Positions 14,751 through 38,154 of a DNA stretch of 64,000 nt are shown here, in pieces. Made by a program: the position numbers and the translations under genes. Each line of letters starts with the position of its first letter. Position 1 is the first letter of the stretch. The DNA lies in IMG/VR virus record IMGVR_UViG_3300022745_000020, positions 32,001-96,000 of that record; one strand, written 5' to 3'. The notes beneath the pieces are model-generated. The model saw only the letters and a list, made by a program, of their open reading frames with translations. It made no database searches and was not told where the DNA came from. The DNA is from a virus.

Positions 14751-16904
14751 ATGCACCGTTTTCAATCCAGAGATGGACAGCCTTATAACTTCACCGATGG
14801 CTTAGTAATCAAAGATATCGATCTGTCTGGAGATCAGGGCTTTAAAGCCATCTCCATGAAGATCAAGTCCAGTGATGTAGCGCCCACTACGTTGTATGAC
14901 TGGATGAATGCCTATACCAGTAAGCATGTAGACAGCATATCGCCCTACGACAAAGGTGCTAAGGGGGATGGCTCTGCCGATGATGTGGCTTTACAGGCCT
15001 GGCTCGATGCCATCGGCACCGACACCCCTGGTGCTGGTAAGGTGGGCATACTCCCAGATGGGATCTTTCGCCACTACACCAAGCTCATCTTTAATAAGCA
15101 GTATTATTACATCAGGGGTGCTGGGGCACTGAATTCCATCCTCAAGGGACCTGGCTTTGCGCTCAAAGCCAACAAGCTCTATCTGAGCATCAACGCACAG
15201 GACTTCACAGTCGATACGACCGATCACCAGACTCAGGTGTCGTTTACGGGCAGCATCTCCGGCAACATCTTAACGGTCACCAGCGCCCCCACAGGACCCT
15301 TGACGGTTAATGCACGGCTGTCCATCCCCGTGGAGAGTGACTATACAAACATCTACATCACTGAGTTTGTCACCGGCACGGGTGGAGTGGGTACCTATCG
15401 CACGAACAAAATGGCCACGTCCACAGACAGTTATCCGGGTGGTACGACCTTCTTAGCCACCAGTGGACCATCGCCGATCGATGTCTCGGGCACTGCCCAG
15501 TATATCTTGAACTCCTCGTTCACAAACCTGACACTCAATGGCGTAGAGCACGCCATCACGTGCCCTAACTTCACCAACTCCATCCTCAACAACTGCTCAC
15601 TCAGCAGCAAGACACTGGCTCCTGCTTTGCTGTATATGCAAGGTGGTAGTGAATTGAGGAGAGTCCAAGTCGGTGCCATCCCCTCATCTATGCCCGGCTT
15701 TAGACTGTATGGGCGAGGTGTACTCAATGCCTGTCAGGGTGATACCTCTGTCGATACGACCAAGACCAATACGTTTTTTGCCATCGTGGGCTCTAACCCT
15801 CTGAGTAAGAATTACTCACGTGACTTACTCTCTAATTTAAATGACAGTCCCGATTTCATCTTTAACGATTGTCTCATCAGTAACTTCGCTCATGCCGGTA
15901 TCGTAGTAGATGGGGTGTGGCGGCGCATCGATGTCATCGGTGGGGGGTTTGATCGCACCTTGCGCACGGACAGCTATGGTGCGGCGATGATCTTCACTTG
16001 TGGCCCTGTCTCTGCTGGTGTCACATCAACATTTAACCCCAGTACTTTCAATATGGGCACTGGGACTTTGGTTGTTAGTTCCCTGTTTGATATGCCCGGT
16101 GCTAAGAGTGCGTATATCAACAAAAAGAAGAACGTCGGCAACACCTTCGATACCCATGTCATCGATCGATCTGGTTATGTACCAGTGGTCACTAATGAGG
16201 GCACCTATCAGCAAAGTATCGAAGCCTTTGGTGCGACCATCAGCTCCGATATTGGATCGGCTTATCAGATCAGCAGGTTCACTTCTCGTGTGAACCACAT
16301 CCAGGTCAATTGCTACATCTCTAAGGCTGCGGCGATTTCAGGCACCGCCGCTACACTGGACGTGACGGGTTACAGTAAAATCCTCCTCAGTGGGGCTGCG
16401 GGATCTAAGCTCAGTAAAGCTTCGTTTATTGATGCATCTAATGCAGAGTATGATGCAGCGGGTAAACCCATCGTAGCGAAATTTACAGGCGATATCACCA
16501 ATGGTACTGTGGGTGTGGCCGGCACGACACTGAACGTGACCTCATTGACTTCAGGCACCATCATGATCGGCACCGCCGTCATAGGTGCGGGAGTTGCTGC
16601 TAACACTTATGTGAGTGGCTATCTCACTGGCACGGGTGGAGTGGGTACCTATACAGTATCGATCTCTCAGCTGGCTAGCAGTGGCGGCAATACCTGGACA
16701 TGCTATCACCCCAATGGCAACGATACAGCGCGCAACGGTGAGCTGGTCATCGAGTTTGCTGATACGAATTGCAAGATCGCTCACTCTACCACAGGGGTAT
16801 ACACCTTCAGACTCACTGCTGGGGTGGACTATACACCTGCATATGCAGGAGCAGTAATCGCCTTCAGATGGTCTGAGACACTGCGACAGTTCGTGCAGCA
16901 ATAA
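14751..16904 (+). CDS. Tailspike / depolymerase with pectate-lyase-3-like beta-helix
   Basis: 'PYDKGAKGDGSADDVALQAWLDA...LPDGIF' beta-helix start. The N-terminal anchor is shared with the 35221 gene, and there are two 'FTG.I...TL.VTS...TGTGGVGTY' inserts. Confidence 0.7.
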   Translation: MHRFQSRDGQPYNFTDGLVIKDIDLSGDQGFKAISMKIKSSDVAPTTLYDWMNAYTSKHVDSISPYDKGAKGDGSADDVALQAWLDAIGTDTPGAGKVGILPDGIFRHYTKLIFNKQYYYIRGAGALNSILKGPGFALKANKLYLSINAQDFTVDTTDHQTQVSFTGSISGNILTVTSAPTGPLTVNARLSIPVESDYTNIYITEFVTGTGGVGTYRTNKMATSTDSYPGGTTFLATSGPSPIDVSGTAQYILNSSFTNLTLNGVEHAITCPNFTNSILNNCSLSSKTLAPALLYMQGGSELRRVQVGAIPSSMPGFRLYGRGVLNACQGDTSVDTTKTNTFFAIVGSNPLSKNYSRDLLSNLNDSPDFIFNDCLISNFAHAGIVVDGVWRRIDVIGGGFDRTLRTDSYGAAMIFTCGPVSAGVTSTFNPSTFNMGTGTLVVSSLFDMPGAKSAYINKKKNVGNTFDTHVIDRSGYVPVVTNEGTYQQSIEAFGATISSDIGSAYQISRFTSRVNHIQVNCYISKAAAISGTAATLDVTGYSKILLSGAAGSKLSKASFIDASNAEYDAAGKPIVAKFTGDITNGTVGVAGTTLNVTSLTSGTIMIGTAVIGAGVAANTYVSGYLTGTGGVGTYTVSISQLASSGGNTWTCYHPNGNDTARNGELVIEFADTNCKIAHSTTGVYTFRLTAGVDYTPAYAGAVIAFRWSETLRQFVQQ

Positions 16905-16919
16905 CCCAAGCATATGCGC

Positions 16920-16957: not shown

Positions 16958-17058
16958 CGTATGTATTTTTATAGCCGAATCATTTGAGCTATTGACCATT
17001 AGGGTGGATATGGAGCGTTTCCACATCCGTGATACCCATTTCTACAAAAGGAATCGCT

Positions 17059-18483
17059 ATGACTTATACACTGGACGTCACGGGTTCGTCCATCGAGAAT
17101 AAGATTCTCGGTGACAGCGTAAGCGTCACGCCGATCGCATCCGGGTATCAACGAGTGATCCCCCTGACAGGTCCGTTTTTTGAGCAAGATTGTGTGGTGA
17201 GATATACCCCAGTCAGTGGAGCTCGCCGTACACTGGTTAAGGATGTAGACTACTATCTGGGATACCCCTATATCGCTGCGAGTAATGCATGTAAGCTGGC
17301 TATATATGGAGCCATCGTACTCGTAGATCCATCTACAAATGGCACCATCACCTACAGCGTACAGACCCTCGGTGGTGACTATGAAATCACCAACACCAAG
17401 GTATCGCTCATCCTGACTGGAGAGACCAGAGACCCCACCATCACCAGCTGGGAGATGGTCAACACCGCCCGCAACTATGCGCTGGCTGTATTTCCGGTGG
17501 TGGATTATGCGTACACACGAGCCAGTAGTGTAGAGTTTCGAAAGATGGTGGATCTGCTCGATGAAGCAGGTTTGTCTATCCACCTGCGCCCGACATTTTT
17601 ACCTACACCTGGCGATACAGTCTATATCCCTACAGCTGCTGAGGTGGGCTTAGGTAACGTCAGCAACTACCGAACCGCCACCAGTGTCGAAGCTGCTGCT
17701 GGGCTGGCCGATAATTTGCTGGTGACTCCTGCGGGTGTACGGTCCTGTTTGGTGAATCAGCTGACCACCATGCTCAGTGCGATGGGGTATCAACTACCTA
17801 TCACTTATGCAGGCTCTCTGGTGGTGAGTAACAGCACTCAACTCTACACCTACGATGGTGACACGTACGCAGCACGCACAGGAACAACCCCGTTTACTAC
17901 GTCTGGATCGTTCGAGTATGACAAGTTCATGCTGGTCAACGCCACCAAGCGCGATAGCTGGGTGAGTCAGACTTACACCATCACGGGCACTGAGAGTAAA
18001 AACGCTCTGGGTGATACCATCATCCCCATCACTGCTGCAGTGATCAAGTGTGCTGTCAAGATCCGAGTGATCCTCAACAGCATCTGTGAGCTCGTGCGGG
18101 AAGTCGATGTCAAACTCGATGGAAATAACTTACTGGTCAACTACCCCCTATCGGTGGGTGACAGCATTTGCATCAAAATCAAGCAGCTCAAGAGTCGCGC
18201 CAGTGATGCCCGCAGTTACAGCAAGAGCTTTGCTGTGACTAATACAGCCACGTCCTATACACTGACCGATCTGCAGGGCATCAACCCCTCTGACTTGGAA
18301 GTCAGACTCAACGATGTATTCATCTTAGATGCCAACGTAGGGGATTATTCCATCAATGGTACTGCACTGTCGATCAATTTCCCCAAAGCCATCGGAGACA
18401 CGATTGAGGTGCAAGATATCGACTCCATCCCTCAGATAGGCATACAGTCTCTGCGCAGTATCACCTATAGTACTGTGGCGTAA
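17059..18483 (+). CDS. Baseplate / tail-fibre anchoring protein (phiKZ gp130/gp145-146 family)
   Basis: ATG 17059 follows AAAAGGA; N-terminal 'LDVTG...N.I..E/D...GPFF' domain and the fibre repeat 'TAAEVGLGNVSNY...LLVTPAGV'. Confidence 0.65.
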   Translation: MTYTLDVTGSSIENKILGDSVSVTPIASGYQRVIPLTGPFFEQDCVVRYTPVSGARRTLVKDVDYYLGYPYIAASNACKLAIYGAIVLVDPSTNGTITYSVQTLGGDYEITNTKVSLILTGETRDPTITSWEMVNTARNYALAVFPVVDYAYTRASSVEFRKMVDLLDEAGLSIHLRPTFLPTPGDTVYIPTAAEVGLGNVSNYRTATSVEAAAGLADNLLVTPAGVRSCLVNQLTTMLSAMGYQLPITYAGSLVVSNSTQLYTYDGDTYAARTGTTPFTTSGSFEYDKFMLVNATKRDSWVSQTYTITGTESKNALGDTIIPITAAVIKCAVKIRVILNSICELVREVDVKLDGNNLLVNYPLSVGDSICIKIKQLKSRASDARSYSKSFAVTNTATSYTLTDLQGINPSDLEVRLNDVFILDANVGDYSINGTALSINFPKAIGDTIEVQDIDSIPQIGIQSLRSITYSTVA

Positions 18484-18526: not shown

Positions 18527-21500
18527 ATGCTCTCACTCACCACTATCAAGAAACTCAATCCGGTCGTAGCAGGCACAGCTGTGCCTGCTGGCACGACCGT
18601 CCCATCGGCTCAAATCTCTGATGCCACCACCGTTGGTAAAGCTCTGATCGTCGCGGCTGATACTGCTACGGCACGTACTACGCTAGAACTGGGCAGCGCT
18701 GCCCAGTCTAGTACCACGTCTTTTGATCCGGCAGGCACCTCCACATCGGTGATGTTCAGCCACACGGCGGCTGCTGACCCCCACGGGCAGTATTTGACCC
18801 AAGCTCGTGCAAACTTGCTGTACAACCCGCTGGGCTCATCTGGCACTGTGACAGCCAGCAGCATCACCGATGCTTCGTCTTTTGGCCGAGATCTGCTGAC
18901 TGCCACTTCTGTGGCTATACAGCGCACCAAGCTGGGCCTGGGCAGTGCTGCGCTGGCTGCCACTACCGATTTCGTGCCGGTGGCCACGGGCACTACCTTG
19001 GCTAATGCCGATATCGCCTCAGGTGTGCTCACGGGTAACAACCTCGTGCTCACCAAGGTCGGTGGTGGCACCATCACCATCGATGTGACCGCAGCAGTAG
19101 CCGATCTGCGAGTGACCAGTGGGGTGTATAACGCTGCTACGAAGGCGCTGGATTTCACGCTGTCTGATTCATCCAAGATCAGTGTGCCAGTGTCGGCTTT
19201 GTTGCCAGTGACGGTGGGTAACTCCATCACTGGAGATGGTGCTACCACGCCTTTGTCGGTGGCTTACTCTGCCGATAGTGGCAATACCGCCAAAGCAGGT
19301 ACCGATGGGAAGATCTTTGCATCGCCCACCAACCTGAGTGCGACGCCCAGTGCCACCACACTGACGCTGACCAGCTCTACGGGCTCTTCTGCCACGTTGC
19401 CATTGGCCACGGGCACCAATTCTGGTCTACTGGCTCCTGCTGATTTTACTAAGATCTCCGGTCTGCCCGCCACGACATCCGCGGCTGGCGCTAACCTAAT
19501 CACTCAGGCTACGACTACCTTGCAGCGCACTGCTCTGGGCCTGGGTAGTGCAGCTACACTCAATGCCACCACCCTGGTGCAGACTGTCAACTCCCGCACC
19601 CCAGATGGATCGGGTGATGTCAACACCCGTACGTTTACTTCTGGATCGGTCGGTGCTACTGCAGTGGTGATTGATCTGTCGCTCTATCTGCTCGTAGGTG
19701 CACCTCACACACTCAGTGTGACACCCGATGCAGGATGCTCTATCCAAGTCGAATCCAGCACGAACGGTGGCACTACGTACACCACGTATGCCACAGCCAC
19801 GAGCATGGCCGCATACCAGTACATGCTCCAGCCTGGTGAGACTGCAGTCACCCATATCCGACTGACTCGCACAGTGGGTACGTCCACTGCGAGCGTCTAC
19901 TCGGTCAGTGCAGGTTTGGACTTTGCACAATACCCAGCCGGTACGGTGGCTAACACTGTATCGTCCAATAGCATCACCGATGCCTCTCAGCTGGGTAAGG
20001 ATCTGATCACTGCAGCTACTGAAGCAGTAGGTCGCACCAAGTTGGGCTTGGGTACTGCTTCTACGCTGAACGCCACCTCCATCGTCCAGACGGTGAATTC
20101 ACTCACCCCGGATGTCAATGGCAATGTCGTCACTCGCACCTGGGAGACCAACAAGGTCGGCGCCAGTGCAGTGCTGATCAACTTGAATAACATCTTGCTG
20201 TTGGGAGCTCCTCACACTCTGGTGGTGTCTCCCGATACGGGATGTACGATCTTGATCGAATCCAGTACCGACAATGGTACTACCTACAGCACGATCGATA
20301 CGATCACGATCGAAAATTCCTATCGATATTCTGTACAGCCTGGTGAGAACCCTGTCACCCATATCCGCATCACTCGCACGGTAGGCACCAGTGTCAATAG
20401 CCTATACTACATCAGTGGAGGTGTGGACTATGCCCAGTATCCGTCTGGCACCATCGTCTCCTCTGGCGGTACTGGTAACCTGTCTGCCAGTACCAACTTC
20501 ACTCAAACCACCATCAACAATGCCACTGCAGCGGGCACTGCACTGTTGACCGCTACTGACCTGGCTGCACAAAAGACACTGTTGGGTATCACAGGTGGTA
20601 CGGGTCTGTCCGCAGGCACTAATCTGACTCAGGCTGTCGTCACCGCCACGACTGCCATCGGTGCAGATATCCTCCAGAACGCGACAGCTGTCGGCCAAAC
20701 TCTGGTGAAGTCAGCCACCGCTCAGGCTGCACTTAACACCATCGCAGGAGCAGTCACAGCTGCCAGATTCCTGCGCGGTGATGGCACTAACGTCACTCTG
20801 TCGGCTATCCAAGCCTCTGATGTACCGACTTTGAACCAGAGTACGACAGGCTCGGCTGCGACGCTGACGACTGCTCGCACCATCTCCGCCACAGGCGATG
20901 CCACTGGCTCTACCACATTCGACGGCAGTGCCAACGTCTCCATGGCACTGACTCTGGCTAACACCGCTGTCACTGCTGGATCGTACACCGCAGCGACCAT
21001 CACTGTCGATGGTAAGGGTCGCGTCACCGCGGCCTCATCTGGCTCCTATGCCAGTGCTGCACAAGGTACGTTGGCGGGCACAGCGTTACAGCCGGGCACC
21101 AACCTCACTCAGGCCGTAGTGACTGGCACCAGCTCCATCGGTGCAGACATCCTGCAAAATGCGACAGCCGTTGGTCAGACCATCGTCAAGTCCGCTACCG
21201 CTCAAGCTGCACTTAACACCATCGCTGGTGCGGTGACTGCAGGTCAATATCCCCGTGGCAATGGCACCAACGTGGTGATGTCTGCCATCCAAGCCGCAGA
21301 TGTCCCTACGCTTAATCAGAATACGACTGGTTCTGCCGCGAGCCTCACCACTGCTCGTAATATCTCAGCGACTGGTGATGGTAGCTGGACAGTGTCTTTC
21401 AACGGTAGTGCTGACGCTACCGCAGCTCTGACTTTGGCTACGACTGGCATCACCGCTGGCACTTATGCCGCACCCACTCTCACCTTGGATACCAAGGGTC

Positions 21501-22900
21501 GAGTCACTGGGGTCACAGCTCAGACCTATGTAAAGACCATCAACTCCACTGCGCCTGATGGTGCCGGTAACGTCGCGCTGACACAAGCGGCCTCTGGTGC
21601 TATCGGAGCTTCCGCTGTAGTCATCGCAGTAGCTACTTATAATCTCTCAGGTCAACCCCACGTTCTGACGATCACGCCCGATACGGGATGTACGATCACT
21701 GTAGAGTACAGCACCAACAGTGGCACGACTTATACGACTTACTCCACCATCACCAGCTATGCACGGTATCAGTATACGGTGCAGCCTAATGAGACAGCGG
21801 TCACGCATATTCGACTGACTCGCACAGTGGGTAGCTCCACAGCTTCGACTTACTCGTTAGCAGGGGGGGCTGCCGTAGCTCAGTATCCGGCTAATGCCAA
21901 CGTCTATCTGAAGGCCAGTGCCACTGTGCCTCAAACTGTCATCGATAACACCACCTCCATCGGTGCGGCTGTGATGCAAGCCACCACCGCTGCAGCAGCT
22001 CAAAGTGCGATCGGGCTGGGCTCTACACTGAGCACGACCACCTATATATTGGGTCAAAATAGTTTTGGTACTGTTGGGATTACTACAACTGCATCACTGT
22101 CTCTACCTGCTTATATCACCACCAACGGAGGCTACATCTACGTGGATGGTTGTGGCGGAGGCGGTGCGGGTGGAGGTGGGTCTACCGATTCAGGTGGCGG
22201 TGGCGGCGGTGGGTCACGCGGTGTCAGCATGGTGCCTATTTATATACCTGCGGGAATTTCTACTGTAGCTATCCAAGTAGGTGCGGGTGGCGCAGGGGGT
22301 ACTGGTGGCAGTGCAGGAGCTGGTACAGCTGGTACAGCTGGAACAGAAACCTATATCAAACTCACCAATAGCTCAGGGCCCTATTGTGCCCGTTTTGGTG
22401 GGGGTATCGGTGGTAGTGGTGGGTCATCCACTGCAGGCACTGGCGGTGCAGGTGCCACCAGTGCATCTCAGTTATTCGTAGGGGGTTCTGCCGGTACAGG
22501 TGCAGGTAACGGCGGTGCCGGTAACCCGATTGCGGGAGCTTTTAGCAGTGGTGATAACGTCGTCTCTGGTCGCACGCTCACTGGAGGTGGTGGTGGGGGT
22601 GGAGCGGGTGCTACAGCCACTACAGGTGGAGGTATCGGGGGATACTCGGTATCTCAGAACGGTGCAGGTGGCGCCGGTGCCGGCGCAGGCGGCGGTGGCG
22701 GTGCGGGCCCTTGGGGGCGCAGCAGCAACCTTCCATTTATAGGTTATATGGGTACTGCCGGTGCAGGTGGTGCCGGTGGCGCTTCCCCCACAGTTGGCGC
22801 CTCAGCAACCACCGACACTTTCGGTGGCGGTGGTGGTGGGGGTGGTAAGACCATGGCCGGCGGTAATGGTGGTGACGGTTTCCTTCGCATCCTGTTTTAA
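18527..22900 (+). CDS. Long tail fibre with a C-terminal polyglycine adhesin-like domain
   Basis: 1457 aa, A/T/G-rich. It has three copies of a 'PH.L..TPD.GC.I..E.S...THIR.TRT.G' domain, a ~160-aa internal duplication and a Gly-rich tip from ~22030. Confidence 0.8.
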   Translation: MLSLTTIKKLNPVVAGTAVPAGTTVPSAQISDATTVGKALIVAADTATARTTLELGSAAQSSTTSFDPAGTSTSVMFSHTAAADPHGQYLTQARANLLYNPLGSSGTVTASSITDASSFGRDLLTATSVAIQRTKLGLGSAALAATTDFVPVATGTTLANADIASGVLTGNNLVLTKVGGGTITIDVTAAVADLRVTSGVYNAATKALDFTLSDSSKISVPVSALLPVTVGNSITGDGATTPLSVAYSADSGNTAKAGTDGKIFASPTNLSATPSATTLTLTSSTGSSATLPLATGTNSGLLAPADFTKISGLPATTSAAGANLITQATTTLQRTALGLGSAATLNATTLVQTVNSRTPDGSGDVNTRTFTSGSVGATAVVIDLSLYLLVGAPHTLSVTPDAGCSIQVESSTNGGTTYTTYATATSMAAYQYMLQPGETAVTHIRLTRTVGTSTASVYSVSAGLDFAQYPAGTVANTVSSNSITDASQLGKDLITAATEAVGRTKLGLGTASTLNATSIVQTVNSLTPDVNGNVVTRTWETNKVGASAVLINLNNILLLGAPHTLVVSPDTGCTILIESSTDNGTTYSTIDTITIENSYRYSVQPGENPVTHIRITRTVGTSVNSLYYISGGVDYAQYPSGTIVSSGGTGNLSASTNFTQTTINNATAAGTALLTATDLAAQKTLLGITGGTGLSAGTNLTQAVVTATTAIGADILQNATAVGQTLVKSATAQAALNTIAGAVTAARFLRGDGTNVTLSAIQASDVPTLNQSTTGSAATLTTARTISATGDATGSTTFDGSANVSMALTLANTAVTAGSYTAATITVDGKGRVTAASSGSYASAAQGTLAGTALQPGTNLTQAVVTGTSSIGADILQNATAVGQTIVKSATAQAALNTIAGAVTAGQYPRGNGTNVVMSAIQAADVPTLNQNTTGSAASLTTARNISATGDGSWTVSFNGSADATAALTLATTGITAGTYAAPTLTLDTKGRVTGVTAQTYVKTINSTAPDGAGNVALTQAASGAIGASAVVIAVATYNLSGQPHVLTITPDTGCTITVEYSTNSGTTYTTYSTITSYARYQYTVQPNETAVTHIRLTRTVGSSTASTYSLAGGAAVAQYPANANVYLKASATVPQTVIDNTTSIGAAVMQATTAAAAQSAIGLGSTLSTTTYILGQNSFGTVGITTTASLSLPAYITTNGGYIYVDGCGGGGAGGGGSTDSGGGGGGGSRGVSMVPIYIPAGISTVAIQVGAGGAGGTGGSAGAGTAGTAGTETYIKLTNSSGPYCARFGGGIGGSGGSSTAGTGGAGATSASQLFVGGSAGTGAGNGGAGNPIAGAFSSGDNVVSGRTLTGGGGGGGAGATATTGGGIGGYSVSQNGAGGAGAGAGGGGGAGPWGRSSNLPFIGYMGTAGAGGAGGASPTVGASATTDTFGGGGGGGGKTMAGGNGGDGFLRILF

Positions 22901-22903
22901 ATC

Positions 22904-23827: not shown

Positions 23828-24295
23828 ATGTACACTCCAGGCATTAAAAATATTCAGTTTGGCCCCTTTGCTACAGCTGCAGCACTCCAGGCTAAATATC
23901 CCGCCACTCTCTATCCAGGCGCTGTCGCATTAGTGGGGTCTACCACCCCCTATGCTACATATCGCAGTGATGGGATGGTATGGCAACCACCAGCATTGCA
24001 GACGGACTCGTCTAATCTCTTAACGACCAGTCAAGGTTTAGTGATTGCTCAACTGGGCAGTGTCATCACTACAGGCACCTGGTATCGGGTGCCATCGATG
24101 TTTCGATTAGCAGTCACTGGTACAGGTACATTGACCCTAGATGGTCGTGATGTAGCTGGTACTATATCCACCTCGGTATACACCACTACCCTGACCAGTG
24201 CTACCAATCAAATCCTTTACCCGTTCTTGGGTATGAGTAATGCAGACCTGCGCCTGAATGTGACGTCAGGATCCTTAACTGTACAAGTGTGGTGA
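23828..24295 (+). CDS. Small fibre-associated protein with the shared N-terminal module
   Basis: 'GPFATAAALQAKYPATLYPGAVALVGSTTPY..Y.SDG..W' N-terminus, shared with three other island genes. Confidence 0.7.
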   Translation: MYTPGIKNIQFGPFATAAALQAKYPATLYPGAVALVGSTTPYATYRSDGMVWQPPALQTDSSNLLTTSQGLVIAQLGSVITTGTWYRVPSMFRLAVTGTGTLTLDGRDVAGTISTSVYTTTLTSATNQILYPFLGMSNADLRLNVTSGSLTVQVW

Positions 24296-24298
24296 GAT

Positions 24299-30383: not shown

Positions 30384-32798
30384 ATGAGCTACTCTCCATC
30401 ACTCAAGGGCGTGTATATCGGTACTTTTGCCACCGAAAAAGCCTTGACAGACTCCGTCAATCCCACCAAAGTGCCAGGATCTTTTGCTCTGGTAGGTACT
30501 GGCCCCTATCGGATCTTATATGCAGAGGGGTCTAATTGGATCGATCATCACCTGCGCACACAAGGCGATGACCTACTCGACGCCAATGGCATATCTGTAC
30601 GAAATAGAATGGATGTCGCCAGGAGGAATTATATCCTCTCTTCACTAGAGGCACCTGTCATCATCCCTCCACGTCTGCAAGTGGGTGCTAACGGCGCTAT
30701 TCAATTTGGCACTTTGGTCTCTGGCACTACCATTACTTTCTCTGCCACCTCTGGCACGGGTGTGACATGTACAGCCAGTGCAGCATTCTTCACCAGTGCC
30801 GCGGTGGATGTGAATAAGTACATTTCACTGCCCACAGGTGAGTGGGCTCAAGTGACAGCTTTCACCAGTACTACTGTGGTAACAGTCAGTATCTTGACAG
30901 CAGGACCTGCCCTGAAGGGTACAGTAGGACCATATTCTAATTGGTATTATGGCCATGGCACAGCTGCAGTGTATGGCCATCCGGGTTACTCAAATGTCGC
31001 TCGTGCAGCTCTGGGTTGCTGGATGTACTTCAAAGCAGGTGCTCTCTATGCGGGCTCAGCTGCAGACACCTATTGGGTGGTGATGCGCAGCCCAATGACA
31101 GGCACTGCTTTCAACACCACGCCAGACAACGGATTCGGTCGCCTCCCATTGGCTACACCACAACGTATCATATCACCGGCTATGGGTGAGCAAGCCCATG
31201 CTGCAGGGGACGTATTCTTTGGAGGGGCTACAGCTATCCCTTTTGGAGCAGTGGGGCCAAATGGAAACGTAATCTGCACCCTAGCGGGCACCGCCTCTAC
31301 ATCAGCTCTAACTAAATATGTTATTCCGTACTATGGAAATAGCAGTTCTGGGCGACCGTCGTCCACTACAGCTGGGGGTTTTGTTCTGAGAACCCGATGG
31401 AGTGCTAGAGGCAGTCACTCTATACTCAGCCCTGCCCAGGGGTGGAGTGGTGAAACCGATGTCACTGGTCATGGTAATGCATCCAACGACATTGCTGGCG
31501 GTAAACCGACATTCCGCATGAAAGGAAATAGCGGTGGTCCAGATGACTATATCACCATTGAGAATCTGCGATTAGAGATCGATCCAGGTCCTTCTGGAGG
31601 TCGAGCTCTGCGCTCACCAGCGACTCTACCTATCACGGTACCTGCCGATTTCATGGGGATGAATCTCATGCAGCCGGGGTATAGCGGTAATGCCCTATCC
31701 CTGGTCAGTAAGGTCGGGGTAAATCGACTGAATCAGTCTCGTGTGAGTATGTGGGCTGCTATAGAGACAGCTGCAGGGGTATATAACCCTACTATACTGT
31801 CTAGTCTCGGGGCTATAATCACCGCCATCAAGGCCAAAGGGGGAAAGATAGCTCTGGGGTTATACGCCACACCTACTTTTTATGCGGGTACTACCCCGCA
31901 TCCTACTTATACAGATGCACAGACCCTGGGGCCATGGGGATATCTTGGAGAGTGCTCCAATCCCACCAGCACCACTGCAGTGGTGAACTTCGTTACATAC
32001 ATGATCAATTATTTCAATAAACCCGGAGGTGCTTGGTATGAAGCCAATGGGGGAAAGAAAGGTATTGATTATTGGGAGACTTGGAATGAGCCGGAGAATT
32101 ATACCGATTCAAACCAAAACTCCACAGGTGTAGGAGCTAAGGGAAAACAGTTTTGGTGGGGTAGCAGTACCCAATTGGTAGACCTGTGCAAACTACAGTA
32201 CGATTTGATTAAGTCATTAGACTCCTCCATTGTTATATGGTCACCTGGCTTTGCATCAACTAACGCCAATGCTCAAACATTTTTAGCGTGTCAGGGCACT
32301 ACTTACAGTTCCACCACAGGTGCTGATACGTTTGATCAGTTTTCTTTTCATACCTATTCAGCAGCCCCACCGGGGGAGACTACCGGTGTGGGAAATGGAG
32401 ATATCTTAACCAACTTAACTGGGCTGTATGAGCAGGTAACTGCACTGAGAACTCAAGGGTATAACTTTCCTCTGACCATCGGAGAGATAGGGTTTGACCC
32501 AGATGCACTCAATTCGGCAGCATGGTATGCAAAATCTGCAGCCGATCGATACACCTACTGGTGTAGAGTGGCCATGGTCTGCGCCGCCTGGGGCATCAAA
32601 TCCATATTGCCGTGGCACTGGACCTCAGGTAACACCACAGGAACAGCTGGTAATTGGGGAGGCGATGTGGATGGTTGTACTAAAGCCTACAATGATATCC
32701 AGACTAAATTGTGTGGAAAGACCATTGTCTCCTACAGCTATGAAAATAACTCCCCAGTGAGGCTGGACTTCAGCGACGGCACCTACTGGGTGGTATGA
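30384..32798 (+). CDS. Tail-associated depolymerase: shared N-terminal module, beta domain and C-terminal clan GH-A hydrolase
   Basis: 'WAAIET..GVY', 'ETWNEPE', 'FSFHTY' and 'LTIGEIG' motifs; the N-terminus matches the island module. Confidence 0.8.
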   Translation: MSYSPSLKGVYIGTFATEKALTDSVNPTKVPGSFALVGTGPYRILYAEGSNWIDHHLRTQGDDLLDANGISVRNRMDVARRNYILSSLEAPVIIPPRLQVGANGAIQFGTLVSGTTITFSATSGTGVTCTASAAFFTSAAVDVNKYISLPTGEWAQVTAFTSTTVVTVSILTAGPALKGTVGPYSNWYYGHGTAAVYGHPGYSNVARAALGCWMYFKAGALYAGSAADTYWVVMRSPMTGTAFNTTPDNGFGRLPLATPQRIISPAMGEQAHAAGDVFFGGATAIPFGAVGPNGNVICTLAGTASTSALTKYVIPYYGNSSSGRPSSTTAGGFVLRTRWSARGSHSILSPAQGWSGETDVTGHGNASNDIAGGKPTFRMKGNSGGPDDYITIENLRLEIDPGPSGGRALRSPATLPITVPADFMGMNLMQPGYSGNALSLVSKVGVNRLNQSRVSMWAAIETAAGVYNPTILSSLGAIITAIKAKGGKIALGLYATPTFYAGTTPHPTYTDAQTLGPWGYLGECSNPTSTTAVVNFVTYMINYFNKPGGAWYEANGGKKGIDYWETWNEPENYTDSNQNSTGVGAKGKQFWWGSSTQLVDLCKLQYDLIKSLDSSIVIWSPGFASTNANAQTFLACQGTTYSSTTGADTFDQFSFHTYSAAPPGETTGVGNGDILTNLTGLYEQVTALRTQGYNFPLTIGEIGFDPDALNSAAWYAKSAADRYTYWCRVAMVCAAWGIKSILPWHWTSGNTTGTAGNWGGDVDGCTKAYNDIQTKLCGKTIVSYSYENNSPVRLDFSDGTYWVV

Positions 32799-32929: not shown

Positions 32930-34318
32930 ATGTATTTTGATCAACTACTCCCCTCTACTGCAGGTTTGGCTCTCATAAAGGCCGCTTCTGCATCAGCACA
33001 AAGATCCCAACTCGGCCTGGGAAGCGCATCGACGCTGAACGCCACAAACATCGTTCAATCGGTCAATGGCCTGGCACCTGATGTCTCGGGTAATGTCCTG
33101 ACTCGCAATTTTACCTCAGGTACAGTAGGTGCTACAGCAGTAGTTATCCCCCTGGCTACGTACCTGTTGGTGGGTGCACCACACACACTTAACGTCACAC
33201 CTGATACGGGATGTACTCTACAAATAGAATACAGTCTGAACAACGGGGCTAACTATGTGGTGTATGATACAACCACAGTCAGCAACATTTACCAGTATAC
33301 GATGCTGCCTGGTGAGAGCGCGATTACTCATCTGCGCATTACTCGCACTGCAGGCACCAGCAACAACAGCACCTATTATCTCAGTGGGGGTGTGGACTAT
33401 GCTCAGTACCCCGCAGGCTCTCCAGCTATATCGATCACTGCGGCTAACATCTCAGACTCTTCTGCAGCAGGTCGAGCCTTACTGACAGCTGCAGATGTCA
33501 CCACTCAAAATGCACTATTGGGCACCAGTGGGGCGATCACCTCTTTGGCTGGGATGCAAGCTACTTTTAATAGTGGCTCTGCTGCAGAAAAAGCCGCGTT
33601 TCAATCGTCAGTAGCGGGGGTGTTCAATGAGATGGTCTCGCTGCACCCCAGTGCTATTCCTTTGATTATCCCAGGCAGTGGCACAGTGAGCACCAACGGG
33701 GCATTGGTGCTGGGTACAGCCAACTCTGTTATCTACAGTGACAGTTATGTATATCTTCCAGCAGGAGCTGCATTTGCAAGCTCTATCGCTGGATTTTACT
33801 ATGTAAAATTCACCACTCTAACTACAGGCACCATCTACAATAACGTCTATTCCCCAGGTGCAAACTTCCCCTCTATCGTAGCTGTGCCAACTGCGATTTC
33901 TGCAGCCGGCCCCGGTGCATTTACAGGCCCCACCACTGAAATTGATGCAGTGGTCGTCACTGTGACTGGTGGTGCTATGGGTGTAAATGGACGCATCCAC
34001 ATCCAGTACTACGCTGGAGGCACCAACAGTGCAGGCAACAAGACCGTCAAAATTTACTACGGTGACACTAACTTAAACTCCTCTACCATGACCACTCAGC
34101 TGCAGCTGTGTATGCCGCTGTATGTGATCCAAAACCGGGGTAAATTAACCAGCCAGTATACCCCAGGATCTGCTTTCTCTGGCACCAGCACCAGCGCACC
34201 TGTAGCTACTTCGATTGACTCGTCTGTAGATCAGATCGTCAAGATCTCTCTGACACACTCCAGTGCTGCTACCGATAACATCGTACTAGAGTCGTGTAAC
34301 ATCGACGTGTGGGGTTGA
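32930..34318 (+). CDS. Tail fibre / adaptor protein, chimera of domains seen in 18527 and 30384
   Basis: The N-half has the 'APHTL.VTPDTGC...THLRITRT.G' domain of 18527; the C-half 'IIP....V..NGA...GT...AGA..A.S.A..Y.V....TGT..N' is shared with 30384. Confidence 0.72.
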   Translation: MYFDQLLPSTAGLALIKAASASAQRSQLGLGSASTLNATNIVQSVNGLAPDVSGNVLTRNFTSGTVGATAVVIPLATYLLVGAPHTLNVTPDTGCTLQIEYSLNNGANYVVYDTTTVSNIYQYTMLPGESAITHLRITRTAGTSNNSTYYLSGGVDYAQYPAGSPAISITAANISDSSAAGRALLTAADVTTQNALLGTSGAITSLAGMQATFNSGSAAEKAAFQSSVAGVFNEMVSLHPSAIPLIIPGSGTVSTNGALVLGTANSVIYSDSYVYLPAGAAFASSIAGFYYVKFTTLTTGTIYNNVYSPGANFPSIVAVPTAISAAGPGAFTGPTTEIDAVVVTVTGGAMGVNGRIHIQYYAGGTNSAGNKTVKIYYGDTNLNSSTMTTQLQLCMPLYVIQNRGKLTSQYTPGSAFSGTSTSAPVATSIDSSVDQIVKISLTHSSAATDNIVLESCNIDVWG

Positions 34319-34319: not shown

Positions 34320-35081
34320 ATGTCGGTTTATTACACCAAACCCACTAAGCGATTTACTACGACTGAGCCGTTTACTGGAGCAGTGGGCACTTATGATCTA
34401 CAAGCGCTTTCCTCTTCAAGATTGGTGATATCCTCCGATGCATCTGGTCAGCTCGCCACATTCACTTGTCAGCCAGGCGATCAATATCAAACATCCTCCG
34501 GCGAGCGCACAGAGATCATTTTAGGAGGGGGTTCGAATTCAGCAGCATTCAAGGTCACTGGGCTGGAAAACGATGTAGAGTATTGGACGTTTTCCGTCAA
34601 GCTAAGTTCCCCCTGGAGTCAGCCCGGGCTGTACAATGGCGTCTCACGTTGGCTAGTTCCCATTCAGTTTCACGGACCTGACTCGTACATAGCCCCTCCC
34701 AGCTTGGCTCTACAAACGGAGACAGGGGTATATGTCATGAGTATGTGTGTGGGTAATATGTCCAGTAAAAATACAGTCATGTACCCGCTGACTGACAACA
34801 ATTTACTGCTCGATAATTGGGTGGACTTTTGCTTCGAGATTCGCTGGTCTACAGGTACAGATGGCTATGTGAAACTGTATCGCCGCAATCCAGGAAGTGT
34901 ATATACCCGGGTATGTAAGGTGGCTAGTACCCCCACCATGCAGTATGCTACCGCAGGAGCCGCACAGATGCACTATGCTAAGGCGGGTATTTATCGCTCA
35001 CCATCATCGACCACCCACGTGGCATCTCATCGTCAGATCACCCGTACCACCGCCAGACCTGCAGGTCTGCCAGTGGCGTAA
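34320..35081 (+). CDS. Polysaccharide lyase (heparin lyase I-like beta-jelly roll, PF14099-type)
   Basis: 'GERTEI', 'QFHG', 'WVDF...WS...DGYVKLYR' and 'YAKAGIYR' motifs. Confidence 0.72.
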   Translation: MSVYYTKPTKRFTTTEPFTGAVGTYDLQALSSSRLVISSDASGQLATFTCQPGDQYQTSSGERTEIILGGGSNSAAFKVTGLENDVEYWTFSVKLSSPWSQPGLYNGVSRWLVPIQFHGPDSYIAPPSLALQTETGVYVMSMCVGNMSSKNTVMYPLTDNNLLLDNWVDFCFEIRWSTGTDGYVKLYRRNPGSVYTRVCKVASTPTMQYATAGAAQMHYAKAGIYRSPSSTTHVASHRQITRTTARPAGLPVA

Positions 35082-35220: not shown

Positions 35221-38154
35221 ATGCAAAATGATTTTCCGTCCAGGAACGGAGCGCCTATTAACTTCACCACTGGCTTGATGATCAAGGGAGTGAACATCTC
35301 CGGTGATGAGGGGGCTAAGGTAATGGCCCTCAAAGTTAAAGCCTCGGATACCTCTGCCACCTCCGTATATGACTGGATCCGGTCGATGGACACGACCGTG
35401 GCCTCCATCTTACAAAACGGTGTAGCCTCTACCGGCTCCGTCACTGTCAGTCAGATCAGCGATGCCTCCTCACTCGGGGTGAGTCTGCTCAAAGCCACCT
35501 CCACCACACAAGCTCAGACTCTGCTGGGAGTGGGTGCAGCGACTTCTTTTACCATCAGTCAAATCTCTGATGCGTCCACCATCGGTAAAGCCCTGATGAG
35601 TAGCGCATCAGCTACTGCAGCTCGTGGCTATATCGGCCTAGGTACGGCAGCGACTCAAAACACCACAGCATTCGCTACGGCCATCCAGGGCACCAAAGCC
35701 GATACCGCTCTACAGCCTGGAGTACTGCCAGCAGGCACGACCATAGTCACCAGTCAGATCAGTGACGCCAGCGCGTTCACTAAAGACTTCCTGACTGCCA
35801 CCAGTGCAGCCACAGCTCAGACTAAACTGGGCTTGGGCAGCGCCGCCATTCAAGCATCGACTGCTTTTGCTACATCTACTCAAGGTGGCAAAGCCGATAC
35901 CGCCTTACAGCCTGGAGTGCTGCCAGCAGGCACGACCATAGTCACCAGTCAGATCAGTGACAGCTCCTCATTGGGGCGCAGTCTGCTGACGGTGAATACA
36001 CAGGCCGATCTGAAGACCCTGGTGGGGGTAGCTGCCAACACCAATGTCACCATTTCTCAGATTAGTGATGCCGGAGCTACCGGTGCTGCCATCTTAGCTG
36101 CAGGATCCACCACAGCAGCTCAAGCTGCAATCGGTCTACCTAACGCATCGACTGCATTACAACCCGGTGCATTGCCACTGAATACGACAGTCACCATCAA
36201 TCAGATCAGTGATGCTAATGCGTGGTCTCGTACGTTTCTAACAGCATCTAATACTGCAACTGCATGGGCACAGTTGGGGCTCGGTAGCGCAGCGGGTACC
36301 GCAGCCAGTGCGTTCGCTACTGCTGCTCAGGGCTCATTGGCTAGCACTGCTTTGCAGCCCGGTGCATTGCCAGCGGGCACCACCATCGCATCGACTCAAA
36401 TCTCTAATGCCTCTGCCCTGGGCAGGCAAGTCCTCACAGCAGCCACCGCTGCACTGGCCCAATCCTATCTGGGTCTGGGCACAGCTGCGACTCAAAACTC
36501 TACCGCATTCGCTACAGCTGCTCAGGGTGCACTGGCTGACACCTCCTTGCAGCCATCTTCTATCGGTGTCACCGTAGCGGGTCTGTCAGGTGGTAAGCTC
36601 AGTAGCTCAGTCATCCCAGATATCGCCATCGTTCAATATCTGGGATCAGTAGCCAGCCAGACCGCCATGCTGGCACTGACTGGTCAGCAAGGTGACTGGT
36701 GTATCCGCAGTGACTTAGGCACCACCTGGGTGATCACGGGTGCTACGCCCACGGTGATCGGCAGCTGGACTCAGCTGTCCTATCCTACTGCCCCAGTGAC
36801 CTCTGTAGCCGGTAAGACAGGCGCTGTCACACTGGCAGCTGCTGATATCAGTGATGCCTCCACCATCGGTAAAGGTGTGTTGACGGCTACGACTGCAGCC
36901 ATCGCTCAGACTGCTCTGGGTCTGGGCAGTGCTGCCGGATATGCAGCCAGTGCATTCGCTACAGCTGCACAAGGTACACTGGCTGGGACTGCATTGCAGC
37001 CCGGTGCATTGCCACTATCGACTACAGTCACCATCAATCAGATCAGTGATGCTAATGCGTGGTCTCGTACGTTTCTGACTGCCAATAGTGCATCTTCGGG
37101 ACGTACTCAATTGGGCCTGGGTACTGCAGCGGTATCGGCCACTACCGATTTTGCTACTGCGCTGCAGGGCTCTAAAGCCAACACGGCATTGCAGCCCGGT
37201 ACGAACCTCACTCAGACAGTGGTGTCAGCGACTTCTCTGGCAGGCTCCCAACTCATCACTGCAGCCGATACCGCCTCTATGCGCAGTGTACTGGGTCTAG
37301 GTACTGCGGCCTTGAACAATGTTGGAGATTTCGCCACAGCCGCTCAGGGCACCAAAGCCAACACGGCTCTGCAGCCCAGTCAGGCAGGTGGTATCATGGA
37401 CCAATATCTGGTCAATGGCGTGACGCTCACAGGAGCTGCGCTGATGACATCGACCTCAGTGGCTGTAGCCAGAGCCAACCTGGCTCTAGGTCCCGGTTAC
37501 TCCTCCGATGTCATTGCGTATCAGGGTACCTGGGCTGGCCGCCCCGGCACCAACATACCACTGCCGGGTAACCGCATAGTCATCACTGATGTGGGTGTGA
37601 AGGGAAGGGCCGCCCACAATTACATTCACATGGTGCTCACTTATTCCTCACTCGGTTCCTATTATTACTCCTTGCTTAATGGCAGTGCAGTGATTTATGA
37701 CTATATCGGCTCGCAAGATACCCCCACGACTGGTTATAGCTTCCTCGCAATGAAGATAAACTCAAATTTGACACTAACCGTCCCAGGGGATTTTCTATCA
37801 CCCGTAACAAATACAGTTAGGTATGACCTGGAGTTCACTATCGATCAAAATTCGGTGGATGCCAGTAACCGTTCAATTATTTATATCCGATTTGGCTCTA
37901 CAGGCACCGATAGTGACCGACTCATCGGGACTTATCCCATCTCCGGAAACTCGATAACTACAGTCATCCGAGCCAGCTTTACCCTAGAGGGGTATAACTG
38001 CTGGACATATAACCCTCCTCTATATCAAGTCCTACCCTTTAGTAATTACAATATAGCCTTTGGCACCAGCAACTACTTCACGGTCTGGGTCGCTGGAGGT
38101 GCATCTGGTGAAAGTAGTATGATGCGTCAGCAGCGCGTCGTTGCCAGTTTCTAA
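35221..38154 (+). CDS. Long tail fibre with tandem ~65-aa repeats
   Basis: Repeated 'QISDA...LGLG.AA...FATA.QG..A.TALQPG' units; N-terminal anchor shared with 14751; unique C-terminal tip. Confidence 0.8.
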   Translation: MQNDFPSRNGAPINFTTGLMIKGVNISGDEGAKVMALKVKASDTSATSVYDWIRSMDTTVASILQNGVASTGSVTVSQISDASSLGVSLLKATSTTQAQTLLGVGAATSFTISQISDASTIGKALMSSASATAARGYIGLGTAATQNTTAFATAIQGTKADTALQPGVLPAGTTIVTSQISDASAFTKDFLTATSAATAQTKLGLGSAAIQASTAFATSTQGGKADTALQPGVLPAGTTIVTSQISDSSSLGRSLLTVNTQADLKTLVGVAANTNVTISQISDAGATGAAILAAGSTTAAQAAIGLPNASTALQPGALPLNTTVTINQISDANAWSRTFLTASNTATAWAQLGLGSAAGTAASAFATAAQGSLASTALQPGALPAGTTIASTQISNASALGRQVLTAATAALAQSYLGLGTAATQNSTAFATAAQGALADTSLQPSSIGVTVAGLSGGKLSSSVIPDIAIVQYLGSVASQTAMLALTGQQGDWCIRSDLGTTWVITGATPTVIGSWTQLSYPTAPVTSVAGKTGAVTLAAADISDASTIGKGVLTATTAAIAQTALGLGSAAGYAASAFATAAQGTLAGTALQPGALPLSTTVTINQISDANAWSRTFLTANSASSGRTQLGLGTAAVSATTDFATALQGSKANTALQPGTNLTQTVVSATSLAGSQLITAADTASMRSVLGLGTAALNNVGDFATAAQGTKANTALQPSQAGGIMDQYLVNGVTLTGAALMTSTSVAVARANLALGPGYSSDVIAYQGTWAGRPGTNIPLPGNRIVITDVGVKGRAAHNYIHMVLTYSSLGSYYYSLLNGSAVIYDYIGSQDTPTTGYSFLAMKINSNLTLTVPGDFLSPVTNTVRYDLEFTIDQNSVDASNRSIIYIRFGSTGTDSDRLIGTYPISGNSITTVIRASFTLEGYNCWTYNPPLYQVLPFSNYNIAFGTSNYFTVWVAGGASGESSMMRQQRVVASF

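Follow-up and report, generated by a model that had tools for sequence, protein, structure and literature searches.

Tip domains rich in polyglycine are coming into view as a widespread class of putative host-recognition module in phages; examples are known from Pam3, from mycobacteriophages including Bxb1, and from the gp38 adhesin of S16. The polyglycine-rich domain (PGD) considered here is of a type described in cyanophage and mycobacteriophage fibres and widespread in viral proteomes (PMC9608196, PMC13243192). In Pam3 gp24 (PDB 7YPX/7YFW), β-sandwich strands are interleaved with glycine-rich motifs that build a lattice with variable distal loops, at the C-terminal tip of a fibre whose N-terminal domain is helical and which has its own dedicated chaperone, gp25. 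The 'tail wing brush' of Bxb1, gp33 (267 residues; PDB 9D93 chains Qa/Qb), stands alone as a protein and is a resolved component of the virion, carried on an accessory wing (gp30-gp31-gp33) of a siphophage with a mycolic-acid host. This wing is apparently dispensable, since gene 30 has been deleted and the relative Hami1 is without the region (PMC12646305). The gp38 adhesin of S16 and the T-even phages (PDB 6F45) also alternates glycine-rich motifs with hypervariable segments in a PPII-type lattice, but has no TNF-like sandwich; it comprises an attachment domain, a β-helix and a three-layer sandwich of ten strands, and as a monomer it caps the tip of the trimeric fibre and sets host range. For S16 gp38, Pam3 gp24 and the mycobacteriophage spikes, the loops have been put forward as the face that binds the receptor (PMC9608196; bioRxiv 10.64898/2026.07.24.740622), a role that for the Pam3/Bxb1-type domain is put forward without direct experimental demonstration (Jabs preprint). 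More distant is the TG (TNF-like plus glycine-rich) supradomain of the animal receptor tyrosine kinases ALK and LTK, which has 12-18% identity to the PGD and binds cytokine ligands on a different face; the likeness to it is one of fold.

The fibres of phiKZ, in comparison, are built from gp131/133-135-type paralogs (PMC13250141), which share an N-terminal baseplate-docking domain, differ in their C-terminal payloads and have β-propellers as distal domains (gp131). The locus described here resembles the phiKZ gp131-gp135 locus in this division between shared N-termini and varied payloads, whereas its own distal domains are PGDs. It also resembles both that locus and the hyperbranched fibres of the jumbo phage PhiKp24 in bringing several receptor-binding proteins and enzymes together in one place, although PhiKp24 is unrelated and, in the work cited in PMC13250141, is credited with tailspike depolymerases instead of PGD tips.

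The window that we analysed is a 64,000-nucleotide stretch (positions 32,001 to 96,000) of IMG/VR record IMGVR_UViG_3300022745_000020, from a phage known from metagenomes only. The preliminary description spoke of a jumbo phage, and the record, at 148 kb and an estimated 53% completeness and with phiKZ-type core genes, bears this out. Fifteen co-oriented genes do occupy positions 14751-38154, all on the plus strand (starting at 14751, 17029, 18527, 22904, 23828, 24299, 24601, 25461, 26750, 28059, 29341, 30384, 32930, 34320 and 35221), and most are tightly packed, with overlaps or gaps of 1-10 nt. We believe with some confidence that in this island an uncultured phiKZ-like jumbo phage carries its tail-fibre and receptor-binding module in enlarged form, with six glycine-rich domains homologous to the distal domain of Pam3 gp24 and to Bxb1 gp33. 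It is new in copy number and setting, but represents neither a new fold nor a new system; the earlier suggestion of an undescribed system fails because the domain type has already been described in phage fibres.

Alignment of the six paralogs (A1) confirms that each of six genes carries a glycine-rich domain of ~280 residues (25-32% Gly), with 48 invariant columns, mainly Gly, that include the previously quoted blocks YIQVG.GG, GGASP, GGGGGGGK and DGFLRI. The domain forms the C-terminus of three proteins: the 1457-residue long fibre g18527 (aa ~1164-1457; 22016..22900, own-genome profile match E 3.9e-47), g26750 (27164..28048; 432 residues, comprising an N-terminal module B, helical linker repeats and the PGD) and g28059 (28467..29339; 426 residues, with module B, a linker and the PGD, aligned with the others and with a weak PF21722 match). 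It makes up the whole of three others, namely g22904 (22904..23824, 306 residues), in which a G18 homopolymer lies at 23584-23601, g24601 (24601..25464, 287 residues) and g29341 (29341..30273, 310 residues, identified by alignment and genome profile match, with a 58% identical ortholog in the related metagenomic phage L006). A profile search of the 148-kb record found exactly these six and no further copies. Variability clusters in four aromatic-rich loops (in g22904, aa 151-165, 181-190, 211-220 and 241-250), where the entropy is 1.8-2.3, compared with 0.5-0.9 in the Gly blocks.

With sequences of this composition, the likeness might be an artefact of low complexity, the Gly-rich open reading frames of G-rich DNA being either not true genes or not truly homologous domains. 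BLAST with the low-complexity filter on returned nothing, and GGGGS linkers contaminated the searches of PDB sequences, both of which speak for such an artefact. The paralog g24601, however, which is indeed the most divergent, as the preliminary description had it, reaches 57.9 bits with an HMM made from the five others, whereas 500 shuffled versions of it average -43 and rise no higher than -17.5, so that the likeness exceeds shared composition. The non-Gly strands are also conserved among the six paralogs, and intact orthologs exist in three other metagenomic phage lineages. The shuffle test, together with the fold and its structural relatives described below, refutes the artefact, which we regard as scarcely credible. 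Glycine words do affect sensitivity: a word-indexed search with g22904 gave only 4 matches because these words flood the candidate list, compared with 162 representatives from an exhaustive HMM search. A second alignment (A2) comprises 50 members, the six paralogs and 44 database homologs.

Two AlphaFold models provide the fold. That of g22904 has pLDDT 85 and pTM 0.86, and that of g26750 has pLDDT 85.9, rising to 92-98 in the PGD. Both models show the domain as a TNF-like β-sandwich with loops that build up a Gly-rich PPII lattice of several layers, and the polyglycine-II architecture that had been anticipated, with Gly blocks alternating with hypervariable loops, is thus reproduced as a prediction. 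Their structural matches are phage fibres, PPII-bundle antifreeze proteins and Obg. Against PDB sequences the six-sequence profile recovered GGGGS-linker artefacts only, whereas the 50-sequence profile has Pam3 gp24 as its best match (E 7.5e-7), with the non-Gly strands aligning at both ends, and also reaches the Bxb1 'Tail wing brush, gp33' (E 0.029). The corresponding Pfam family is Gly_rich_2 (PF21722), to whose curated cut-off (24.3 bits) the six score equal or below as proteins: hmmscan finds g28059 only, at 17.3 bits, although g28059 reaches the cut-off in a six-frame search of the genome, in which two of the six PGDs exceed it (25.9 and 26.2 bits). The family also matches 37 of the 50 members of A2 at E <= 0.01, and the ortholog P0001 has a precomputed match. 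On this modelled fold, we place the six in the TNF-like plus polyglycine-rich class of domain (variously 'PGD', 'brush' or 'TG'), as a distant branch of Gly_rich_2.

The earlier comparison was with T-even gp38, and here the closest relatives prove to be Pam3 gp24, Bxb1 gp33 and Gly_rich_2 instead. A Pfam-A scan of the six proteins gave no GP38 match at E <= 0.01, and the S16 gp38 structure 6F45 is absent from the PDB sequence matches of profiles A1 and A2 (E <= 1-10). The gp38-like trait of conserved Gly-rich motifs alternating with hypervariable segments is nevertheless present, and the stand-alone genes of ~300 codons behind a fibre gene recall the gp37-then-gp38 order; gp38 is best seen as a different family that has a structural principle in common with these domains. 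The tips of g18527, g26750 and g28059 are placed as in Pam3 gp24, but the island domains are longer (~280 residues, compared with ~200) with more Gly blocks, and there are six of them, three without a shaft, where Pam3 has one such fibre gene; no gp25-like chaperone was identified. Bxb1 gp33 is similar in size to the stand-alone proteins, its loops and those of other mycobacteriophage PGDs expose hydrophobic or aromatic residues, and Bxb1 too has more than one copy per genome (PF21722 matches twice). The setting of the island PGDs, in contrast, is not an accessory wing but the gp131-type locus of a phiKZ-like myophage.

That setting follows from genes in and beside the island. The gp131/133-135-type N-terminal domain is common to g17029 (17029..18483, phrog_2163 E 2.4e-29), within the island, and to two convergent genes on the minus strand beyond it (38215..41901; 38215-39810 and 39853-41901), whose N-terminal ~190 residues belong to the phiKZ gp131/133/134/135 fibre-base family (phrog_2163 E 3e-52 and 6e-27). 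As in phiKZ, there are several paralogs with a shared N-terminal domain, beside the portal/gp130 region, and a homolog of a gene annotated as phiKZ gp129-like lies at 6174-8939. By tblastn the ~190-residue domain is found at 444 places in 264 jumbo-phage records, and at four places in PhiPA3, in gp150 and gp152-154, whose annotation likens them to gp131 and gp133-135. These matches assign the island, which has three proteins with gp131-like N-termini in and around it, to the tail-fibre locus of phiKZ.

The remaining genes draw on a small set of reused modules, and in this respect blastp among the island proteins agrees with the preliminary description. Module A, of ~55 N-terminal residues, is common to g14751 (aa 2-55) and g35221 (aa 3-56), and module B, of ~50, to g23828, g26750, g28059 and g30384. 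The shaft of g18527 (18527..22015; tail-fibre phrog_7389, DNA repeat families D4 and D6) combines 'ISDA...LGLG' repeats with three copies of a repeat domain of ~130-180 residues, found by blastp, and a single copy recurs in the 462-residue fibre-like g32930 (32930..34318; 57% identity over 185 residues to g18527 aa 313-497). 'QISDAS...LGLG' repeats are shared by g18527, g26750 and g35221; the last, a fibre protein of 977 residues (35221..38154; phrog_5711 E 7e-37, repeat families D5 and D9-D17), has module A, many repeats of the form 'QISDAS...LGLG...ALQPG' and a C-terminal domain. The smallest products are g23828 (23828..24295), in which module B (aa 1-55 of 155; blastp against g26750, g28059 and g30384, alignment A5) precedes a small C-terminal domain, and g24299 (24299..24595), whose 98 residues place it in a widespread unnamed phage family of ~92 residues (clusters with as many as 1325 members match it at Atlas cosine 0.96-0.97 and TM 0.89). 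The latter gene adjoins a g24601-type PGD in L006 as well, where its ortholog is 69% identical; a 69-residue ORF upstream of a PGD in another contig (L009) is unrelated to it.

Adhesin-like genes do stand beside genes for glycan-degrading enzymes in this tail-fibre locus, as had been supposed, the enzymes being predictions. The best defined is g34320 (34320..35081), a predicted polysaccharide lyase of 253 residues (PF14099 E 6.9e-13, 49.4 bits, cut-off 29.9), and a PGD and a PF14099 lyase also occur together on an unrelated contig (L023). The other assignments are weak. A TIM-barrel region is common to g25461 (25461..26642; 393 residues), possibly a glycosidase in view of a faint GH10 or clan GH-A signal (PF00331 24.3 bits, cut-off 22.1) and faint xylanase matches in PDB sequences, and to the C-terminal part of g30384 (30384..32798), whose 804 residues begin with module B and a central domain and whose L006 ortholog is 60% identical. 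In g14751 (14751..16904; 717 residues, PHROG tail-fibre match), module A, identified by blastp, precedes a probable β-helix, tailspike-like body, for which the ortholog in a further relative, L007, has a faint PF13229 Beta_helix match. PDB sequence searches with g30384, g34320 and g14751 gave no matches.

Why should one phage carry six such domains? PF21722-type copies number two each in Bxb1 and P-SSM2, and five of the nearest jumbo-phage relatives in culture proved to have none, so that the copy number is as unusual as first thought. The answer, in our reading, lies in a multivalent, probably branched receptor-binding apparatus. By analogy with phiKZ, the proteins with gp131-like N-termini (g17029, g38215 and g39853) would anchor it to the baseplate, and the long fibre and the proteins bearing the two shared N-terminal modules would attach to this base. 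Each modelled PGD, in which the loops of the TNF-like β-sandwich run out into a polyglycine-II/PPII lattice, would present its hypervariable aromatic-rich joining loops as a putative binding face on a rigid stem of conserved Gly strands. The virion would then show several different PGD tips, able to bind different receptors or host variants, together with the β-helix protein, the two glycosidase-like proteins and the lyase, which may cut surface polysaccharide. That these proteins enter the virion, form branches, bind receptors and act as enzymes is in each case our inference.

Some of the PGD proteins, especially the three stand-alone ones, might instead serve as assembly factors or transient caps for fibre tips encoded alongside, acting as T4 gp38 or the Pam3 chaperone gp25 do during assembly. 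Each stand-alone gene adjoins a fibre or module-B gene, resembling the fibre-then-helper pairs of other phages, their products have no long N-terminal attachment or trimerisation region, and the PGD fibres of Pam3 require a dedicated partner, whose gene lies immediately downstream (PMC9608196). Yet the stand-alone proteins have the full domain and the same hypervariable aromatic loops as the fibre-borne tips, whereas known fibre chaperones differ in fold, gp25 being a β-sandwich plus helices (PMC9608196). We consider such a role unlikely. The PGDs could also have a second task beside receptor binding, as nodes of assembly onto which module B docks, and the fibre would then assemble itself into a daisy chain or a branched structure. 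A module-B gene comes directly after a stand-alone PGD gene twice here (22904 then 23828, 29341 then 30384), twice in L006 and also in an unrelated small phage (L017), and module B heads proteins with payloads as varied as a PGD, a glycosidase-like domain and a small domain. Other phage proteins, however, carry it internally and in four tandem copies, so that its role as a simple N-terminal docking plug is uncertain. Such docking is something of a long shot, but if true it would make the pairing of PGDs with module B a code for fibre composition. Phage receptor-binding organelles would thereby have a new principle of assembly, and phiKZ-like jumbo phages their first host-recognition apparatus based on PGDs.

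A further possibility is that the phage keeps the array as a repertoire and does not display it all at once, the tips being renewed by recombination or gene conversion and switched on and off, for example by slippage in the G18 tract of g22904, with individual particles or lineages showing different subsets. The tract is unique in the window and contains five GGG codons, where the ortholog has mixed codons, and paralogs that are otherwise ~60% identical share near-identical DNA patches (a 60-nt window 96% identical between g26750 and g28059, another 92% identical between g18527 and g26750, repeat family D11). Blocks have also moved, in that a block of four genes occupies a different position in L006 and a 164-residue piece resembling g35221 is inserted into the L007 fibre; from these comparisons gene blocks have been rearranged between relatives. 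The conversion patches, however, lie in the conserved C-terminal scaffold block, outside the variable loops, and L006 has an ortholog of every paralog at 58-78% identity, a divergence that saturates synonymous sites, that of g24601 being partial. In a tree that leaves out this partial sequence, the five PGDs for which L006 has a full-length counterpart each group with their own ortholog (SH-aLRT 99-100); homogenisation has thus been limited, and the PGD lineages are old and retained. All the island genes are co-oriented, and the only inverted repeats, a hairpin of terminator type and a single weak pair of 26 nt, are not of invertase type. A search for reverse transcriptase (RVT_1) found none in the 148-kb record, ~53% of the genome, although positive controls matched. 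To the extent of that record, a diversity-generating retroelement (DGR) or invertible-cassette host-range switch is ruled out, and the same observations weaken the exchangeable repertoire that the preliminary description had offered, which we judge rather improbable.

Rapid change at the tips is in keeping with the multivalent display that we favour. Compared with the island, L007 is 77-87% identical in flanking genes and 59-64% in the fibre shaft, and ~41-61% identical over short pieces of the PGDs, indicating that the tips diverge faster than the genes around them. The possibility had been raised that close relatives carry an invariant, already characterised copy of the island; a close relative does have the island, but rearranged and uncharacterised. 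Among 50,697 phage records neither megablast nor tblastn matched the island, g22904, g14751 or the N-terminus of g26750, because low-complexity sequence was filtered and no close relative is in culture, and an IMG/VR search for related loci with alignment A1, g30384 and g17029 returned only the window's own record.

The locus stands out for its six deeply diverged PGD copies, also retained in a relative, for their combination with three kinds of predicted glycan-degrading enzyme, and for their place in a phiKZ-like fibre locus, where among the relatives examined only the distal domain of phiKZ gp131, a β-propeller, has been described. Six scaffolds in what would be one particle context form a natural set for comparing what the hypervariable loops may bind, and the locus is relevant to the construction of multivalent fibres by jumbo phages and to the question whether assembly specificity resides in the small N-terminal modules that their proteins share. 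For an uncultured phage its value lies in comparison and in the generation of hypotheses.

Finally, a strong hairpin of 15 pairs follows g25461 (26653..26685, plus strand), and similar hairpins are found at 35120-35155 and 38172-38211. To judge from their positions, the three are likely to split the island into three transcription units.

Six products of the island at 14751-38154 contain 25-32% glycine over a domain of about 280 residues, here termed the PGD. In the 1457-residue fibre protein 18527 (genes are named by their start coordinates) this domain forms the C-terminal ∼294 residues, in 26750 and 28059 it forms the C-terminal ∼290, and in 22904, 24601 and 29341 it constitutes the entire protein. 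Alignment of the six gives 48 invariant columns and bears out the preliminary description, which had recognised six copies, quoted their glycine blocks and singled out 24601 as the most divergent. When the complete 148-kb record is searched with a profile of the domain, these six places and no others come up. That this similarity is a low-complexity artefact is hardly conceivable: it is refuted both by structural comparison of the PGD models and by a test in which 24601 scores 57.9 bits against an HMM of the other five, while 500 shuffles of 24601 average -43 and reach at most -17.5, implying that the similarity goes beyond composition. In an alignment of 14 PGDs, drawn from this phage and related ones, column entropy stays at 0.5-1.1 across the conserved glycine blocks and strands, and four hypervariable, indel-prone segments (entropy 1.8-2.3; residues 151-165, 181-190, 211-220 and 241-250 in 22904) coincide with the lowest-confidence regions of the 22904 model. 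Aromatic and hydrophobic residues abound in these loops in all six paralogs, as has likewise been noted for mycobacteriophage PGDs.

What is this domain? A Pfam scan gives only a sub-threshold match of 28059 to PF21722 (Gly_rich_2). Searching 1.8 billion representatives exhaustively with an HMM (E <= 1e-3) returned 162 proteins, many of them stand-alone, 270-320 residues long and matching end to end, and in an alignment of the six paralogs with 44 database homologs 37 of the 50 members match PF21722. The AlphaFold2 model of 22904 built on this alignment (pLDDT 85, pTM 0.86) has eight β-strands, and its glycine blocks are neither helix nor strand, with pLDDT above 90; the model was compared with known structures using Foldseek and VIA-align. 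Searched against the whole PDB, the alignment profile matches Pam3 gp24 best (E 7.5e-7), with non-glycine strands aligning at both ends, and also matches the Bxb1 'Tail wing brush, gp33' (E 0.029). We conclude with high confidence that the PGD is a TNF-like plus polyglycine-rich domain as in these two proteins. Such a domain has already been described for Pam3 gp24 (PMC9608196), the polyglycine-rich domain of the Bxb1 gp33 brush is also known (PMC13243192, PMC12646305), and the same type is predicted for other mycobacteriophage spikes (bioRxiv 10.64898/2026.07.24.740622; PMC13252515). The comparison with T-even gp38 made earlier thus holds for a common structural principle but not for family membership, which we reject; the relatives identified by profile are Pam3 gp24 and the Bxb1 brush. 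Domains of the PGD type are widespread in viruses, with at least 192 viral models in BFVD matching at E <= 1e-3; among them are 'Glycine-rich domain-containing proteins' of uncultured phages, minor tail proteins of mycobacteriophages, proteins of cyanophages and collagen-like proteins of giant viruses.

The genomic setting is of phiKZ type. The IMG/VR record is 148 kb long with an estimated completeness of 53%, and the window proteins are recorded also on a 206.5-kb contig. Around the island lie a polymerase (17-1627, phrog_2943), a 921-residue homolog of the product annotated as phiKZ gp129-like (6174-8939), an RNase H-like nuclease (44878-46338) and a UvsX-like recombinase (47929-49392). Homologs of the gp129-like protein occur in 289 jumbo-phage records and share at most 34% identity with it; those of Burkholderia phage FLC9, Ralstonia phages RP12/RP31 and Xanthomonas phage Xoo-sp14 come closest. 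Since all the flanking phiKZ-type core genes are at most 34% identical to those of cultured phages, the lineage is a deeply branching one among jumbo phages. The N-terminal ∼190 residues of 17029, within the island, and of 38215 and 39853, convergent and just past it, belong to phrog_2163 and match PhiPA3 gp150 and gp152-154 (annotated as gp131- and gp133-135-like). In phiKZ, paralogs of the gp131 type make up the part of the tail fibres that is anchored to the baseplate, their base (PMC13250141), and the island is thus an enlarged phiKZ fibre locus.

Its 15 ORFs are all on the + strand, mostly with gaps of 1-10 nt or overlaps, and the ORF map together with all-against-all blastp upholds the earlier view of co-oriented genes that reuse modules. 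An N-terminal module A (∼55 residues) is common to 14751 and 35221, and an N-terminal module B (∼50 residues) to 23828, 26750, 28059 and 30384; a repeat of ∼130-180 residues is present in three copies in 18527 and as a single copy in 32930, short 'ISDA...LGLG...ALQPG' repeats occur in 18527, 26750 and 35221, and a TIM-barrel region is shared by 25461 and the C-terminus of 30384. Perfect or near-perfect intergenic hairpins of 15-18 pairs follow 25461 (26653-26685), 34320 (35120-35155) and 35221 (38172-38211); with only weak T-runs downstream, they are probably terminators or RNA-processing sites, suggesting that the island is split into three transcription units.

Module B (23828-23992, 26750-26914, 28059-28223 and 30384-30551; consensus LxGxFxTxxALQxxxPAAxxPGSxAxVGSxAPYxxYxSxGxxW) gives no sequence match in Pfam or the PDB. 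In the 26750 model it is a confident small α/β domain (residues 5-55), after which come a disordered linker and helical repeats. It recurs in 22 database proteins with diverse payloads, is found in the interior of a protein whose N-terminus is an Mtd_N domain, and forms four tandem copies in the protein P0153 (residues 58-259), so that its positions in phage fibre-like proteins are N-terminal, internal and tandem. Two stand-alone PGD genes of the window and two of the related contig L006 are directly followed by a module-B gene, as is one in L017 (2435-5243), a small phage that is unrelated.

Putative enzymes are part of the same locus. The product of 34320 matches the polysaccharide lyase family PF14099 (E 6.9e-13), 25461 weakly passes the gathering score for GH10, with only weak xylanase matches in the PDB, and 14751 has a tail-fibre PHROG match, with a faint β-helix signal in its ortholog. 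The contig L018 encodes a module-B-plus-PGD protein and then a GH5 cellulase-family protein. On an unrelated contig (L023, 578-4616; JGI 3300080921) a 301-residue PGD protein lies three genes upstream of a PF14099 lyase, a combination of domain types that the island also has.

Comparison between related genomes, proposed in the preliminary description, reveals related loci, rearranged or diverged, in three metagenomic lineages (L006, L007/L008 and L018). The 15.5-kb L006 carries an ortholog of every PGD paralog at 58-78% identity, except that of 24601, which is partial (49% over 167 residues) and runs off the contig end. In a maximum-likelihood tree the five PGDs with full-length counterparts each pair with their own ortholog (SH-aLRT 99-100), implying that these lineages are older than the L006 split and have been retained since; the deeper nodes lack resolution. 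The block 23828-24299-24601 (23828-25464) behaves like a transposed cassette, its L006 equivalent (10277-11951) following a 30384-like gene rather than 22904. This L006 block also holds a 165-residue ORF that matches the PGD profile, where 23828 has a non-glycine C-terminus. L007/L008 are syntenic from 8928 to 22904, with flanking genes 77-87% identical, the fibre shaft 59-64%, and the PGDs alignable only over short pieces at about 41-61%. The L007 long-fibre ortholog (10001-14893) has a 164-residue insert (residues 814-977) that 18527 lacks; the middle of 35221 (35221-38154; residues 384-544) matches it at 68% identity. Judged from these sequences, the insert represents domain shuffling between different fibre genes of related phages. 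Evolution is thus faster in the tips than elsewhere, and modules shift from one fibre gene to another, a pattern typical of receptor-binding loci. Between paralogs ∼60% identical overall, DNA patches of 89-96% identity (27904-28030 versus 29195-29321, and 22756-22882) fall, in the three fibre-borne PGDs, within the C-terminal block, which is conserved; single 60-nt windows reach 96% between 26750 and 28059 and 92% between 18527 and 26750. This suggests that gene conversion acts locally, on the scaffold and not on the loops.

Within 22904, an in-frame run of 18 G (23584-23601) is made up of five GGG codons in succession and the adjoining G's; no other G or C run in the 64-kb window reaches 8 nt. 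In L006 the ortholog specifies this glycine run with mixed GGT, GGA and GGG codons, with no homopolymer of 7 or longer at that place; just ∼13% of the glycine codons in the PGDs are GGG. The tract may act as an on/off switch, prone to slippage, for this single paralog, or else mark a weak spot of the sequencing.

Taken overall, we consider it likely that the island encodes a multivalent, probably branched fibre apparatus. In the functional model towards which we lean, somewhat more cautiously, gp131-like base proteins would anchor this apparatus, the long fibre, together with the proteins bearing module A or B, would add PGD tips and glycan-degrading enzymes, the putative enzymes would clear polysaccharide, and different sets of hypervariable loops would bind different surface structures. 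The stand-alone PGDs could instead be assembly caps and not adhesins, but Bxb1 gp33 is stand-alone and yet resides in the virion, and we regard this as unlikely. Conversion patches between paralogs and the G18 tract would fit a switching or recombining repertoire; the retention of orthologs in a relative, the co-orientation of the genes, and the finding of no invertible repeats and of no reverse transcriptase in the 148-kb record, itself an estimated 53% complete, make that quite improbable.

The proposed fibre apparatus is not the undescribed system for which it was earlier a candidate, since the fold, the domain family and multi-RBP loci with depolymerases are already known. What is new is the copy number, six compared with two each in Bxb1 and cyanophage P-SSM2 (PF21722 query), the division into three fibre-borne and three stand-alone copies, and the presence of PGDs in a phiKZ-type fibre locus, a profile that detects all six finding none in five of the nearest cultured jumbo phages.

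Finally, the 98-residue protein at 24299-24595, which adjoins a 24601-type PGD in L006 also, belongs to a widespread phage family of ∼92 residues (Atlas clusters of up to 1325 members; cosine 0.96-0.97, TM 0.89) that has no Pfam model, and might help to assemble fibres or serve as an adaptor. On the repeated ∼130-residue fibre domain of 18527, residues 1051-1084 (21677-21778) match Pfam Tli3 (27.1 bits, at the cut-off) and Reelin subrepeat B, most likely reflecting a shared β-sandwich motif rather than function.
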